From Methanomassiliicoccales archaeon (GTDB lineage: Archaea > Thermoplasmatota > Thermoplasmata > Methanomassiliicoccales > UBA472): a stretch of DNA of 64,000 nucleotides. The notes under the pieces were generated by a model. The model saw only the letters and a program-made list of their open reading frames with translations. It had not been told where the DNA came from and did not search any database. Positions 57,192 to 61,819 of the stretch are shown here, one piece after another (within the stretch, counting starts at the first letter, position 1; each line of letters begins with the position of its first letter). A program made the translations under genes and the position numbers. The DNA is taken from the NCBI GenBank assembly GCA_038740345.1, contig JAVYMA010000003.1, positions 1,470 to 65,469 of the forward strand, read 5' to 3'.

Positions 57192-58975
57192 TTGATTGTC
57201 ATCGCGATGGTAGCTGTCGCCTCCTTCGCCAGCGCTCTCATCCTGCTAGGTCAGGATAAGGATGATGGCTCCGATTAGACGAAGGGATTCCTGGTCGGGC
57301 CAGACGGTAGTGAGATAAACGCCTTCGACCCCCAAGTGAATATAATCATTCCCAGCGGATCCCTGGAATCCCAGCAGAAGATTATCCTCAGGAGGGTCTC
57401 ACTTTCAAACACCTCTTACATCGCGGAGACCGCTTTCGAGTTAAGGCCTGATGACATCTCCTTCAAGAGACCGATCCAGATCAGAATAATGTATGATTCC
57501 TCAAAAGTACCTAACGAGAGGAGCGAGAGCGACCTCTGTCTAGGTAGGCTTGAGTAGGGGAAATGAAGAACGATAGTGGCAAGCGGTGTGAATGTGACAA
57601 CGAAAGCGGTATGCGGCCTTACCACCAGCTTTAGCACCTATGCGGTGATAGCGAACTCGACGAGGGTCTCGATCAATGGCCCGAATCACGCCTATCCCAA
57701 CGGGATGATGGAGATGACCTATTTCATATCCACTCCCATACCGCAGTACGTCATGGGGTATAGGGCTAGCTGGTCTAAAGAATCTGATGATGGAGCGCTC
57801 TACGAAAGAAGGGATGACGGTAGTGGTCTATATTCGACCTTGGTCGTCCAATATGTGAACAATCTGCCTGTAGCTGGTTCGAGGGTATACTTCTTACCAT
57901 ATCAGGAGCCCATCTCGGAGTGCTGGCAAGAGTGGCTTTGGAGTTGTCTATCACATTCGATATGGACGTATTCAACGGGCCATATTATCTATTCGGCCAT
58001 GCCTCGACCGATGTGGAGATAACCTATCCTGAGGCCATCATCTCTCCGCAGCAAGCTTCTTGCACTCCAGGAGGACAGGTCATATTGCTCCCAGAAGCGC
58101 GAAAGACACCTTCAGACTTTAAGCCATATTGGCATTGGGAGACCGATGCCAACAAGGGCAAGCTATTCGACGCCGGCCAGGACCCCTCCAGCGCGAGCGG
58201 TTCTGCCAACATAGAGAAGACTGACGGCAGTTACGCGATCTTCAAGGCCTCAGAAAGTGCGGAGGTCGGTTCAATCGCGCAGGTCCGTCTGGGGGTATGG
58301 GTGAATGACCCTTATGGCACAGGCAATATCACCCAAGGCCATGGGATGTCGAATATCACGATCATGGACACGCCAATTAGGATTGTATTCGACTACCAGC
58401 CTCAGATAGATTATTGGCATGAGAACTCTGCGAGCTTGTCAGCGGTAGTCTCAGGAGCCCCTGCGGGAACCAAGCGATATGTTTGGAACACTACGGGACT
58501 CTATGGCGGCTTCGGACAGGTTTGGCCCTCATATCAGAGGTCATTCATCAGTTCGGCTCCCTTCGCCTATTATTCCGGCAACGGTAACGGCAGCGACGGG
58601 GACAGAGATGTGATTTCGGTGTCCGTATAAGTTTGGCAGGATGCTTCATGAAAGTTGATAGGGAATGCCTCGGCCAGCATCGAAGTTTGGTATCCACTGA
58701 CGACCTATGCCCTGCTTGATCAAGAGAAGTCCACGGCCTTCTTGGGCTTAGGCAGCAGTTGGGCCATCTACGTGGTGAATCATGGGGCGATAACCGATCT
58801 GTCGAGCTTCCATGCGCGTAAGGGTGATTTCATCAGAGTCATGATATTCTATAGAGGGACCCCGTACTATGAGCCAAGAGACCTCTATCTTTGGAAAGGA
58901 GACAATAATAGATTGTTGCTATCTTCTTCGGAAATGGTTACTGGATCGGATAGGATATTTGTGATAAATTTGTAA
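57192..58975 (+). pseudogene. multiply disrupted gene for a membrane-anchored/secreted protein
   Basis: One reading frame carries a signal-anchor (LIVIAMVAVASFASALILLG) and continues through in-frame TAG 57276, TAG 57555 and TGA 57564. It then needs a frame change between about 57920 and 58022, and crosses TAA 58628 and TGA 58649. The ORF track shows the pieces as 57336.., 57576.., 57920.. and 58655... Confidence 0.55.
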
Positions 58976-59356
58976 GAATTTTTTTATTAAATTTTGATTA
59001 CATTATATTTATTTTTATTTTTTAATTAAGAAAAATATTTTTATTTAAAATGTCTGAAATATTTATATGATGGGAAAATATAAAACAATTTTTTCGTAAA
59101 TATTCAAATCTCAAACAACATTTATAAAATATAAAAAAATATTTATTTTAATTCAATTATAAGTATTAATTGAAAATGGATTCTAAATATTTTGATAAAA
59201 ATTATTACAATATTTGATTTATATATTAAAAAAACAATTTAGCCCGCAAAAATAAATTGTATAAGAAAAACATTATTAGAAAAGCATACTGTTGAGAAAG
59301 TCGTATTGAATCGAGTGCTCTCCAAGTTTAAATGCTTAAAATCATAAACTAAGTGG

Positions 59357-60208
59357 ATGATTTGGGGTATGTATATGAAACCATATTTTTCAATTCCGGG
59401 ATTCGAACTTTATCTTCAAGATTGTCTTGTTGCTCTAGACGAACTTGAGCCAGAATCGGTAGATATGATTTTTGCAGATCCACCATATAACCTTTCCAAT
59501 GGTGGTTTCACTTGTCATTCTGGAAAACGTGCTCCCGTCAACAAAGGAGAATGGGATATTAGTAGAGGTATTGAGAATGATTTTGAATTTCATAAACAAT
59601 GGATATCAAAGTGTAAACGTTTACTGAAAGAAAATGCCACTATTTGGATCAGTGGAACATATCACTCAATTTATGCCTGCGGGTTCGCTCTTCAATTATG
59701 TGGTTACCAAATATTGAATGATATATGCTGGTTCAAACCAAACGCGGCTCCAAATATCAGTACAAGATATTTTACGGCGAGCCACGAGACATTGATTTGG
59801 GCCAAAAAAAGTGCCGATTCCAAACATTATTTCAATTATGAATTAATGAAAAATGGCGTGTGGAAAAAAGACCCCCTAAAGAAACCTGGCAAGCAAATGA
59901 GATCAGTATGGAGTATACCAACTCCATCGCCAAGTGAAAAAAAATTGGGAAAACACCCCACCCAAAAACCAATTGAATTATTAATGAGGATAATTTTGTC
60001 TAGTACAAAGGAAGGAGATACGATCCTTGATCCATTTACTGGAAGTTCAACAACTGGTCTTGTTGCTTATGCGACTAATAGAAAATTCATAGGAATTGAT
60101 AATAATAAAGAATATTTAGATTTATCAATTAAAAGACTTAACGCACTTCAGGATGACATGAGTAAAGTAAAAAAATTTATCACGTGCAAGTTAGGAAATT
60201 TTGAGTGA
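59357..60208 (+). CDS. beta-class exocyclic-amino (N6A/N4C) DNA methyltransferase
   Basis: FADPPYNL (motif IV) is N-terminal and ILDPFTGSSTTG (motif I) C-terminal, with a CcrM/M.HinfI-like middle (WISGTYHSIY...NDICWFKPNAAPN...SHETLIWAKK). The start could be ATG 59375. Confidence 0.85.
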   Translation: MIWGMYMKPYFSIPGFELYLQDCLVALDELEPESVDMIFADPPYNLSNGGFTCHSGKRAPVNKGEWDISRGIENDFEFHKQWISKCKRLLKENATIWISGTYHSIYACGFALQLCGYQILNDICWFKPNAAPNISTRYFTASHETLIWAKKSADSKHYFNYELMKNGVWKKDPLKKPGKQMRSVWSIPTPSPSEKKLGKHPTQKPIELLMRIILSSTKEGDTILDPFTGSSTTGLVAYATNRKFIGIDNNKEYLDLSIKRLNALQDDMSKVKKFITCKLGNFE

Positions 60209-60220
60209 GGGAGGGTTAAT

Positions 60221-61429
60221 TTGTCAGAATTTATAAAATTTTTAGAGAGAATTGCCAACGTTTGCGGAATAAAATTAACTCAAGAACATTTCATGGGAAT
60301 TGACGAGTACCACGTTGCATCTAAAATATTACATGAAATAAACTCATTTTTTTATCAAAAAAAACAGTCAATTCCGGGTGACTATATATCCGAATTTCAT
60401 ATATATTGGAAGAATAACCATAAAAAAATTCTAAGGCCGACTGTAGGACCAAATGGGGAATGTTTAGAGGTCGCTAAAATATTTGAGGGTATATATTCAA
60501 AAACAAGAGTGAAAGTGCATGTAGATACATTGGATTTAACAGCAGAAGAAATAGCAAATGTTCGTTTTTTTACTTCGATTCAAGATTTTAATATCGATAT
60601 CCATGCAAGGGGTAATCCTTTTGAATTATACAAACGAATCCCAGAAAGTTTCTCCCCAAAAAAAATCGTAAATAACGAACTTCTGATTGATACGTTTCTA
60701 AATATGATTGGTGCAGATTCACAAAGAGATAAAAGAAAAAAATGGATGGAAAATGCTGCGAGACTTTTAGTTGAACGTTATGATGGATCCGCGCTCAATA
60801 TTTGTAATGTACATAATGGTGATGTTTTAGAGATTATAAAGGCACTCACTGAAAACGAAAGAAATGGTCTTTCTATCAAAAAGGCCCATATGCTTCTTCG
60901 GGATATGGCTGATCTAGGTATTTGGTCATATTCTAAAAATTCAGACAAACTTGATGTAATGAGTGATAAAAATACCATGAGGGTAGCATTAAGAACCGGC
61001 ATCGTTCAATTTAGTATACCCTTACTGGCAAGTTATCTAGATGTTTATTGCTACCAATACTCTTTAGTCGATCAAGTCTGCAGAGATGCTTGGAGAAAAG
61101 TATGGGAAGATTGGGGTAGTTTGCCAAATAACCATAGACCCCCAACGCCAGCATCAATGGATTATCTGATATATAGATTGGGTAAAATTGTTTGTAAAAA
61201 TCAGAAAAGGATATGTTTTCCATCACCACCTGCGGACTTCAAGCAAATTGAAAGTATGTTCCCTCAAGATAGATTGGCATTCGACAAAGATGGATATTGC
61301 ATCTTCAATAGACTTTGTAAACCTGAAAGAAAGATATTGAATCCACCAAATAGCATATCAATTAAAGGAATGACTGGATGGGATCGAGGTAAGACAAACG
61401 AGGGTGGAGGTGGAGGAATTTCTTCTTAA
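60221..61429 (+). CDS. endonuclease III-like HhH-GPD protein with split 4-Cys Fe-S loop and a long novel N-terminal extension (402 aa)
   Basis: TTG start 5 nt after GGGAGGG. Contains NGLSIKKAHMLLRDM (HhH with Lys), DVMSDKNTMRVALRTG (Asp region), CKNQKRIC...CIFNRLC (C-x6-C ... C-x5-C). See the first finding. Confidence 0.6.
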   Translation: MSEFIKFLERIANVCGIKLTQEHFMGIDEYHVASKILHEINSFFYQKKQSIPGDYISEFHIYWKNNHKKILRPTVGPNGECLEVAKIFEGIYSKTRVKVHVDTLDLTAEEIANVRFFTSIQDFNIDIHARGNPFELYKRIPESFSPKKIVNNELLIDTFLNMIGADSQRDKRKKWMENAARLLVERYDGSALNICNVHNGDVLEIIKALTENERNGLSIKKAHMLLRDMADLGIWSYSKNSDKLDVMSDKNTMRVALRTGIVQFSIPLLASYLDVYCYQYSLVDQVCRDAWRKVWEDWGSLPNNHRPPTPASMDYLIYRLGKIVCKNQKRICFPSPPADFKQIESMFPQDRLAFDKDGYCIFNRLCKPERKILNPPNSISIKGMTGWDRGKTNEGGGGGISS

Positions 61430-61613
61430 TTACAAAATAAAATATTTTTAAATTAATTTTAAAATTTGTTAATCAATTTCATTATTTTTTATAACTTAGA
61501 ATAATATCTATGCAAATCCCATTGAAATATTTATCAACTTTTCATCTTTAGAGAGAATAATTATAAATAAAGCTTTGTTTTAAAAATATTATTTGCTGGA
61601 TATTATTAAGGAG

Positions 61614-61686
61614 TGCTCCCGTCGGGATTTGAACCCGAGTCGAAGCCTCGAGAGGGCTTCATGATTGGCCACTACACTACGGGAGC
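61614..61686 (-). tRNA. tRNA-Glu (anticodon CTC), CCA not encoded
   Basis: The reverse complement GCTCCCGTAGTGTAGTGGCCAATCATGAAGCCCTCTCGAGGCTTCGACTCGGGTTCAAATCCCGACGGGAGCA has acceptor GCTCCCG/CGGGAGC and anticodon loop CTCTCGA. Confidence 0.88.
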
Positions 61687-61709
61687 GCGGTAAGGCCACA
61701 ATCAAAACG

Positions 61710-61725
61710 CCTTTATTAAACCTTT
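61710..61725 (-). promoter_or_regulatory. BRE/TATA-like promoter element of tRNA-Glu
   Basis: The minus strand reads AAAGGTTTAATAAAGG, ending about 24-26 nt upstream of the tRNA 5' end. It is nearly identical to the element upstream of tRNA-iMet. Confidence 0.5.
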
Positions 61726-61819
61726 CTCCTTTCCCTTGGATTCTTTTAAGCTAACATTGGCCACGTGGATAATTCATTTAACCGCAATCATAATGTGAGC
61801 CCACAATGTTCTTTCATTT

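Follow-up and report, generated by a model that had tools for sequence, protein, structure and literature searches.

Must the restriction component of a restriction-modification (R-M) system cut the DNA backbone, or can an enzyme that removes bases stand in its place? The question is raised by a pair of open reading frames (ORFs) in a Methanomassiliicoccales archaeon (GCA_038740345.1, contig JAVYMA010000003.1, positions 1,470-65,469 of the forward strand; this whole stretch of 64,000 nucleotides (nt) is referred to as the window, and all coordinates are given within it unless a locus is named). ORF1 (59357..60208, + strand, 283 amino acids (aa)) encodes a beta-class N6-adenine/N4-cytosine DNA methyltransferase of the DpnA/M.LlaDCHIB type, and ORF2 (60221..61429, + strand, 402 aa, TTG start) a protein with a predicted helix-hairpin-helix (HhH) glycosylase fold, which makes it a candidate restriction glycosylase and apurinic/apyrimidinic (AP) lyase. 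A first-pass annotation, made by eye from the sequence, had suggested that an endonuclease III-like glycosylase replaces the endonuclease here. Having compared sequences and modelled the structure, we consider it somewhat probable that the pair is a mobile Type II-like R-M module in which an HhH glycosylase/AP-lyase provides the restriction activity, directed at unmethylated GATC. On present evidence, the two genes probably carry out restriction by removing bases and not by cutting the backbone directly.

The assignment of ORF2 depends chiefly on its predicted structure. None of the PD-(D/E)xK, HNH or GIY-YIG patterns had been seen in it by eye, and in agreement with this, searches of Pfam, NCBIfam and PADLOC connect it with no nuclease family at E ≤ 1. 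The AlphaFold2 model, built from an alignment of 41 homologs, has a predicted local distance difference test (pLDDT) score of 81.9 and a predicted template modelling (TM) score, pTM, of 0.82; it is all-alpha and contains no beta sheet. When the model was compared with the Protein Data Bank (PDB) using Foldseek, the top match was the Qng1/DUF2419 N-glycosidase (E=5e-4, ~300 columns, TM-score 0.41-0.50). The catalytic domain of human MUTYH was also matched (probability 1.0), as was, weakly, the phage 5-PmdU glycinyltransferase gp46 (E=0.27), the lower matches being noise. In a library of viral structures, the one real match is an endonuclease III (probability 1.0, target-normalised TM-score 0.67, 259 columns). 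The HhH-glycosylase fold proposed for ORF2 by the first-pass annotation is thus recovered by the model. Qng1 itself has an HhH DNA-glycosylase fold with K199 and D231 in its active site (PMC9881137). The profiles point in the same direction: the most distant proteins reached by profile search match Pfam Q_salvage above threshold (AGOG and HhH-GPD more weakly), and hhalign relates the ORF2 family profile to Q_salvage/HhH-GPD-like proteins with probabilities of 95.5% (E=1.5e-8) and 93% (E=3.6e-7). By the fold of the model and the aligned active site, ORF2 is a member of the HhH superfamily that belongs to no curated family, and its reading as an HhH-type glycosylase/lyase is supported.

The active site can be located with some precision. 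The HhH motif NGLSIKKAHMLLR (aa 215-227; 60863..60901, + strand) aligns to GVGPKIGAMILR in P0227, a protein that links the family to the curated ones, and to GVGRKTANVVL in Nth, while the catalytic Asp segment VMSDKNTMRVALRTG (aa 246-260; 60956..61000, + strand) aligns to PVDVHDTRILMRTG and PVDNHLMRISLRSG; the profile-profile alignments pair GLSIKKAHMLLR of ORF2 with GVGPKIGAMILR, and MSDKNTMRVALRTG with PVDVHDTRILMRTG. Since hhalign places them so, K220 (codon 60878-60880, + strand) is the predicted HhH Lys, which would form the Schiff base and serve the AP-lyase, and D249 (codon 60965-60967, + strand) is the predicted catalytic Asp, as the first-pass annotation had read both. In 33 divergent members of the family, down to 27% identity, these two residues are invariant along with R172, G216, R227, D228, Q279, Y280, P310, and D314. 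The absolute conservation of the Lys/Asp pair and its surrounding motif over such a distance argues for catalysis. The two residues are separated by 29 positions in ORF2, compared with 18 in Nth. The spacing is 32 in both AGOG (K140/D172; PMC9638937) and Qng1 (K199/D231; PMC9881137), and for this reason we regard ORF2, from its sequence, as nearer to the AGOG/Qng1 branch than to Nth. Lys and Asp at these positions form the catalytic pair of AGOG, OGG1, and Qng1 (PMC9638937, PMC9881137).

Downstream of the catalytic residues, four cysteines (C325-x6-C332-x27-C360-x5-C366; 61193..61318, + strand) occupy the position of the Nth/MutY iron-sulfur loop, and each of them is present in 29-31 of the 33 divergent members. 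The Cys pattern given by the first-pass annotation is exact, including the x27 insertion; its identification as an Nth-like [4Fe-4S] loop is less secure, and we describe the cluster as a candidate [4Fe-4S] or Zn site. One distant member of the family gives weak matches to Zn-ribbons. The N-terminal helical extension (aa 1-140; 60221..60640, + strand) is conserved within the family, with F7, L37, N41, Y45, Q46, S57, F59, H60, and W63 invariant. Modelled alone, it reaches a pLDDT of 69.9 and has no match in Foldseek, in keeping with the earlier remark that this part of the protein resembles nothing recognised; according to the first-pass annotation, it may be the part that confers sequence recognition. 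The C-terminal tail (TGW...EGGGGGISS; 61343..61426, + strand) is predicted to be disordered (pLDDT <50 for residues 375-402) and is conserved to the last residue even in members that are ~30% identical. In Qng1, the C-terminal tail reaches with its carboxylate into the active site (PMC9881137); by analogy, the tail of ORF2 may be a lid or a part of the active site. The protein is basic overall, with an isoelectric point (pI) of 8.8.

ORF1 was more straightforward to evaluate. It carries FADPPYNL and ILDPFTGSSTTG in the order typical of the beta class, as had been stated (DPPY and FxGxG-type motifs), and it matches PF01555 in Pfam (E=5.6e-59) and MTase_II in PADLOC (E=1e-96). Judged by sequence identity, it is nearest overall to the DpnA-type second methylases of the DpnII/LlaDCHI (GATC) cassettes. 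It is 56% identical over its full length to the beta methylase of Clostridium grantii (locus L047), which adjoins a D12 methylase and an endonuclease identified as R.DpnII (PF04556, E=1e-102), 55% identical to the beta methylase of locus L045, also beside a D12 methylase, 52% identical to the second methylase of the Lactococcus plasmid pSRQ700 (LlaDCHI), and 47.5% identical to methylases of Staphylococcus plasmid cassettes, which have the same three-gene layout and PF04556 endonucleases. Identity to the CcrM-type enzymes of alpha-proteobacteria is lower (~44%). pSRQ700 encodes LlaDCHI, an isoschizomer of DpnII that recognises GATC (PMC6458302, PMC4190342). The predicted product of ORF1 is, most likely, N6-methyladenine (m6A) in GATC.

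ORF2 has ~300 full-length homologs, every one annotated "hypothetical", and an exhaustive hidden Markov model (HMM) search of 1.84 billion representative proteins gave ~120 clusters at 50% identity. The family is spread patchily over >12 phyla, with 60-69% identical homologs in unrelated phyla. A protein identical to ORF2 is known from a metagenome-assembled genome of a Methanomassiliicoccales archaeon. Neither the PLSDB plasmids nor the INPHARED phages nor the IMG/VR viral contigs contain the family, and it is not obviously one of plasmid or phage genes. For the gene neighbourhoods, we examined 38 genome loci from a pattern search together with contigs from exact protein look-up, classifying their ORFs with HMMs built from the partner genes. 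Among the distinct loci with usable upstream sequence, a DNA methyltransferase adjoins the ORF2 homolog in 37 of 38; as a rule it is encoded directly upstream, and in many cases the two genes overlap by 1-8 nt. In the exception (L038), ORF2 is disrupted and there is no methylase. Branches only 27-42% identical to ORF2 are also methylase-linked, so that the conserved linkage looked for by the first-pass annotation holds in the divergent branches too. The partners are drawn from three unrelated families: a DpnA-like beta type, a long motif I-to-IV type, and a D12/DpnM-like type. Linkage across lineages with exchange of partners is a mark of Type II R-M systems, as are the adjoining, co-oriented methyltransferase, here ORF1 located 12 nt upstream, and horizontal mobility.

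Four layouts can be distinguished. The window and its closest relative, L051 (ORF2 69% and methylase 70% identical), have a DpnA-like beta enzyme of 283-287 aa (layout A); the L051 module sits among DUF4411, DUF559, and HATPase_c_3 genes, a defence-island context. In the majority (layout B), the partner is a methylase of 511-546 aa with a motif I-to-IV core at ~60-320 and, by eye, a helix-turn-helix-like N-terminus. We note that the core of this enzyme (L010:3437-5008 and ~20 similar loci) is circularly permuted, with motif I followed by HPPY, and that its C-terminal ~190 aa have no family match or catalytic motifs and partly resemble a degenerate copy of the core. We had considered a fused double methyltransferase, and rejected it because no match in Pfam or PADLOC extends beyond residues ~60-320 and no catalytic motif is present in the last ~190 aa. 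Layout C has a D12 enzyme, in some cases joined by a short B-type enzyme that flanks ORF2; DpnM is the nearest relative of these D12 partners (E=7e-54), with Dam next. In Clostridia (layout D), D12 and beta methylases are found with a MutH-like protein (PF02976) encoded directly upstream of ORF2. The MutH-like gene is 8 nt from the ORF2 homolog in Tissierella creatinini (L044:4258-4905) and overlaps it by 17 nt in C. grantii (L047:4322-4999), where the pair follows a complete DpnII cassette of beta methylase, D12 methylase, and R.DpnII. The arrangement of these genes suggests the pairing of a nickase with a glycosylase at GATC.

Most modules consist of methylase and ORF2 homolog alone and include no nuclease domain. 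In about one-third of the loci, small unannotated genes lie between the methylase and the ORF2 homolog. Three recur: acc190 (~190 aa, 8 loci, e.g. L023:4430-5008), acc178 (~178 aa, 3 loci, e.g. L019:2133-2669), and acc96 (96 aa, 3 loci, e.g. L002:5703-5993); none has a match in Pfam or PADLOC, and acc178 gives a weak hint of NucS_N. Some other neighbours were discounted. In L001 and L025, a DUF6997 protein is encoded directly downstream of ORF2. It does not belong to the module and is a piece of another Type II endonuclease, in a neighbouring R-M remnant; the remnant (L001:7206-8438 and L025:6262-7440) consists of this fragment, which matches a PADLOC Type II endonuclease, and a 291-aa beta methylase, and indicates that R-M systems cluster here. 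The methylase of L024 appeared to be a split gene, and the break proved to be only a run of Ns. One D12 methylase and ORF2 pair (L007:1-11218) is found in a prophage-like region with small ORFs, HTH_17, and Terminase_2.

Host genomes carry a trace of the likely target. Of the 4-bp palindromes, GATC falls furthest below expectation in that part of the window which is host DNA (263 observed against 350 expected), and the same holds when the host flanks are pooled for each architecture group, with observed/expected (O/E) ratios of 0.37, 0.35, 0.61, and 0.29. Taken locus by locus, the ratio is <1 in all 31 host flanks, and GATC ranks first of the 16 palindromes in 10 of them and within the top three in 24. 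Some hosts are nearly free of GATC, one having none where 26.6 were expected. E. coli Dam, to which the D12 partners are related, methylates GATC. The nearness of these partners to DpnM and Dam, that of ORF1 to DpnA-type enzymes, the R.DpnII context in C. grantii, and the depletion of GATC together make GATC the most likely target of the ORF1/ORF2 pair.

The module has been horizontally acquired and is mobile, as seen from three observations: it forms an island of ~33% guanine-cytosine (GC) content in a host of ~52%, it adjoins a tRNA gene, and 60-69% identical homologs occur in unrelated phyla. The island (58976..61800, no strand assigned; ~2.8 kb) stands out in the composition profile at 0.23-0.37 GC against ~0.52 in the flanks, and comprises AT-rich non-coding flanks and the two-gene module. 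According to the ORF list of the window, ORF1 and ORF2 are the only genes inside it; the description of ORF2 as the sole partner of ORF1 is therefore true for the window. The remaining details of the first-pass annotation were checked there as well: the ORFs lie on the same strand with a gap of 12 nt, and a Shine-Dalgarno-like GGGAGGG, read from the sequence (60209..60215, + strand), precedes the TTG at 60221 by five nt. This start is backed by the homologs, whose N-termini (MSxF...) match residue for residue. One minor correction concerns ORF1, for which the span of the 283-aa frame holds and the true start is probably Met7 (ATG 59375), because the alignment to the closest homolog begins there.

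A tRNA-Glu(CTC) gene (61613..61686, - strand; ARAGORN) lies within the downstream AT-rich edge of the island. Its position suggests tRNA-associated integration, for which it is a likely landmark; no integrase is present. The island is flanked by ordinary genes of the host (PPK2, NAD synthase, and CN hydrolase). Directly upstream, at 57576-58975 (+ strand), are three successive ORFs (148, 236, and 106 aa) in different frames and without Pfam matches, which may together represent a single host gene, frameshifted or disrupted, beside the insertion point. On either side of the module, we observed an exact direct repeat of 12 nt (TGAAATATTTAT; 59055-59066 and 61523-61534) and an inverted repeat of 23 nt with 91% complementarity (59013-59035 and 61420-61442). 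These short AT-rich repeats may be insertion scars and are compatible with chance in AT-rich DNA. Scanning the island for sigma-70 promoters and terminators was uninformative, the host being archaeal.

We suggest the following mechanism. On host DNA, ORF1 would methylate the adenine of its target, GATC being most likely, to give G(m6A)TC. ORF2 would bind unmethylated sites on incoming DNA and flip out a base, which is probably the adenine otherwise methylated by ORF1. K220 would then form a Schiff base with C1' and, through beta-elimination, nick the strand. Since both strands of the palindromic site would be attacked, the outcome would be a double-strand break or clustered abasic sites. N6-methylation would protect the host by keeping the base out of the ORF2 pocket. 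In this scheme we infer the base that is excised, the inhibition by methylation, and both the glycosylase and the lyase activity of ORF2.

Several observations weigh against this proposal. At E ≤ 1, neither Pfam nor NCBIfam nor PADLOC gives a match to ORF2, and the profile search against HhH-GPD (PF00730), which the first-pass annotation had put forward as a check, came back empty. As a single sequence it matches no PDB sequence at E ≤ 10, and the profile of 41 homologs likewise finds nothing among the PDB sequences. Its link to the curated families (PF00730, PF09171, and PF10343) is transitive only, by way of P0224, P0235, and P0227. Alignment of the family profile with E. coli Nth is not significant (hhalign probability 0.9%, E=0.063), although it does give the HhH register of the first-pass annotation; the nearest relatives are Qng1/AGOG-like and not Nth. 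The TM-scores are moderate (0.4-0.5, query-normalised), and Qng1, which gives the best structural match, has a free nucleotide and not DNA as its substrate. As for the target, the best solved relative of ORF1 is CcrM, which recognises GANTC; we consider GANTC less likely than GATC, because identity to the DpnA-type enzymes is higher and GATC is depleted in the hosts. That depletion is mild in the window (O/E 0.75), and the statistic covers only hosts that carry ORF2, with no control set of hosts that lack it, so it is supportive, not decisive. Where acc190, acc178, acc96, a MutH-like gene, or R.DpnII (L047) occurs, ORF2 need not be the sole effector. Lastly, the methylase core has an internal deletion in L020 (100-1138), and the methylase of L027 (3569-5059) has two frameshifts and a deletion, yet in both loci ORF2 is intact with all its catalytic residues, which is unexpected for a toxic restriction enzyme. 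Errors in assembling these metagenome-assembled genomes are possible. The host flank of L027 has a single GATC where 21.6 were expected, and with so few sites loss of the methylase could be tolerable.

These difficulties have to be set against those of the other explanations. ORF2 has the fold and the catalytic residues of repair glycosylases, and it might be a glycosylase for base-excision repair or DNA processing, one that accompanies GATC methyltransferases without taking part in restriction. It could, for example, act as a methyl-directed strand-discriminating factor alongside MutH-like nickases, or remove lesions at methylated sites in the way of Mig.MthI and Vsr, the alternative that the first-pass annotation had allowed for. 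The clostridial homologs show translational coupling to a MutH-like gene, and in L047 they lie beside a complete DpnII system with its own endonuclease; this fits, as does the intact ORF2 beside the decayed methylases of L020 and L027. Nevertheless we think it unlikely. Vsr and Mig go with C5-cytosine methylases and correct deamination mismatches, whereas all partners of ORF2 are amino-methyltransferases (N6A/N4C or Dam type) and none is a C5-cytosine enzyme. No equivalent lesion is known for amino-methyltransferases. The repair alternative is weakened accordingly. A tiny low-GC island of two genes, scattered over phyla and with its methylase swapped among three families, would moreover be unexpected for housekeeping repair, and most modules have no MutH-like gene. 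A quite improbable possibility is that ORF2 resembles Qng1 in function and not only in fold, acting as an N-glycosidase on free nucleotides or nucleosides, for instance to clear N6-methyl-dAMP arising from the turnover of methylated DNA. The nucleotide N-glycosidase Qng1/Q_salvage does provide the best structural and profile matches, and a tail conserved to its last residue would suit an enzyme working like Qng1, whose active site takes in the C-terminal tail and carboxylate. This leaves unexplained the strict adjacency to a methylase in selfish-looking islands and the strong depletion of GATC in the hosts. The four-Cys cluster, located where Nth/MutY have their DNA-binding iron-sulfur loop, the matches to endonuclease III and MUTYH, and the basic character of the protein also speak for DNA as the substrate, and Dam-methylating bacteria are not known to require an enzyme that clears N6-methyl-dAMP.

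Action on modified DNA seems to us slightly less probable again. Here, ORF2 would process or remove the m6A made by its partner, or would serve as a Type IV-like defence against hypermodified phage bases such as 7-deazaguanines. Excision of the host's own m6A would be self-destructive, and Type IV-like enzymes need no linked methylase, yet the linkage is nearly universal. The structural matches to a queuine-specific enzyme and to gp46 give the idea some substance, the second being weak as noted above, and since any GATC methylase could supply the upstream step, the partner swaps would be accommodated. Least probable of all, and in our judgement very unlikely, is that ORF2 is inert in restriction, a DNA-binding specificity, regulatory or scaffolding partner whose effector is encoded elsewhere or among the variable small genes. 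Extra unannotated genes in about one-third of the loci would allow for this, but most modules, including that of the window, have no other gene, and the Lys, the Asp, and their surrounding motif, unchanged down to 27% identity, argue for catalysis.

We therefore return to the reading of the pair as an R-M module with a base-excising restriction enzyme. Reviews from 2023 and 2025 name only the PabI family, whose fold is unique, for base-excision restriction and class all other restriction enzymes, up to 2025, as phosphodiesterases (PMC10273834, PMC12707154). We found no description of an HhH-type restriction glycosylase in the literature, most subscription-journal papers and REBASE lying outside the search. 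ORF2 would then found a second, structurally independent class of restriction glycosylase, characterised by the HhH Lys/Asp pair and the Cys4 cluster, by excision of unmethylated adenine, by replacement of R.DpnII-type endonucleases, and by horizontal spread through >12 bacterial phyla and into archaea; this larger claim falls, in our estimate, slightly short of an even chance. If it is true, restriction glycosylases are a recurrent evolutionary solution for which the HhH repair fold was independently recruited, the enzymology of DNA repair and of defence becomes linked, and an unannotated family gains a function. It might also provide a reagent, a metal-independent, GATC-specific, and m6A-sensitive glycosylase or nickase for epigenetic mapping.

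The closest parallel in logic is provided by R.PabI together with R.HpyAXII and R.CcoLI, which with their N6-adenine methylases form Type II-like pairs containing a base-excising restriction enzyme, as we propose here. PabI excises unmethylated adenine from a short palindrome (GTAC); its intrinsic AP-lyase works by way of a Lys Schiff base, and m6A blocks the enzyme. PabI differs from ORF2 in target, likely to be GATC in our case, and in architecture: PabI is a homodimer with a beta-sheet half-pipe, and ORF2 in the predicted model is all-alpha and HhH-type. We rejected membership of the half-pipe family for ORF2, whose model has no beta sheet; comparison with PabI and CcoLI gave no PDB sequence or fold match.

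In architecture, the closest relatives are AGOG/OGG and Qng1 (DUF2419, Pfam Q_salvage), which share with ORF2 a two-lobed all-alpha fold, the HhH Lys, and an Asp 29-32 residues downstream. Unlike AGOG and Qng1, ORF2 has an extra N-terminal region, the Cys4 cluster, and the Gly-rich tail. AGOG and OGG repair 8-oxoguanine, Qng1 hydrolyses a free nucleotide, and none of them is linked to a methyltransferase. With Nth and MutY, ORF2 has in common the HhH fold, the hairpin Lys found in bifunctional Nth, and four C-terminal cysteines with C-x6-C and C-x5-C spacings. Compared to Nth, it is ~190 aa longer, has x27 instead of x2 between the second and third Cys, and has the wider Lys-to-Asp interval given above; Nth and MutY are housekeeping repair enzymes, and ORF2 is part of an island with a methylase. 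Mig.MthI and Vsr offer the precedent of a repair-fold enzyme encoded beside an R-M methylase, Mig being a member of HhH-GPD. They belong with C5-cytosine methylases, repair T:G mismatches, and accompany a separate endonuclease, whereas the ORF2 module has amino-methylases and no endonuclease. In gene content, the module resembles the GATC cassettes of the DpnII/LlaDCHI/MboI type: ORF1 is 52-56% identical to their DpnA-type second methylase, and other loci of the ORF2 family have DpnM-like D12 methylases, sometimes with both types present as in DpnII. The PD-(D/E)XK endonuclease R.DpnII (PF04556) of those cassettes is absent from the window and from most of the loci, and ORF2 is found in the partner position.

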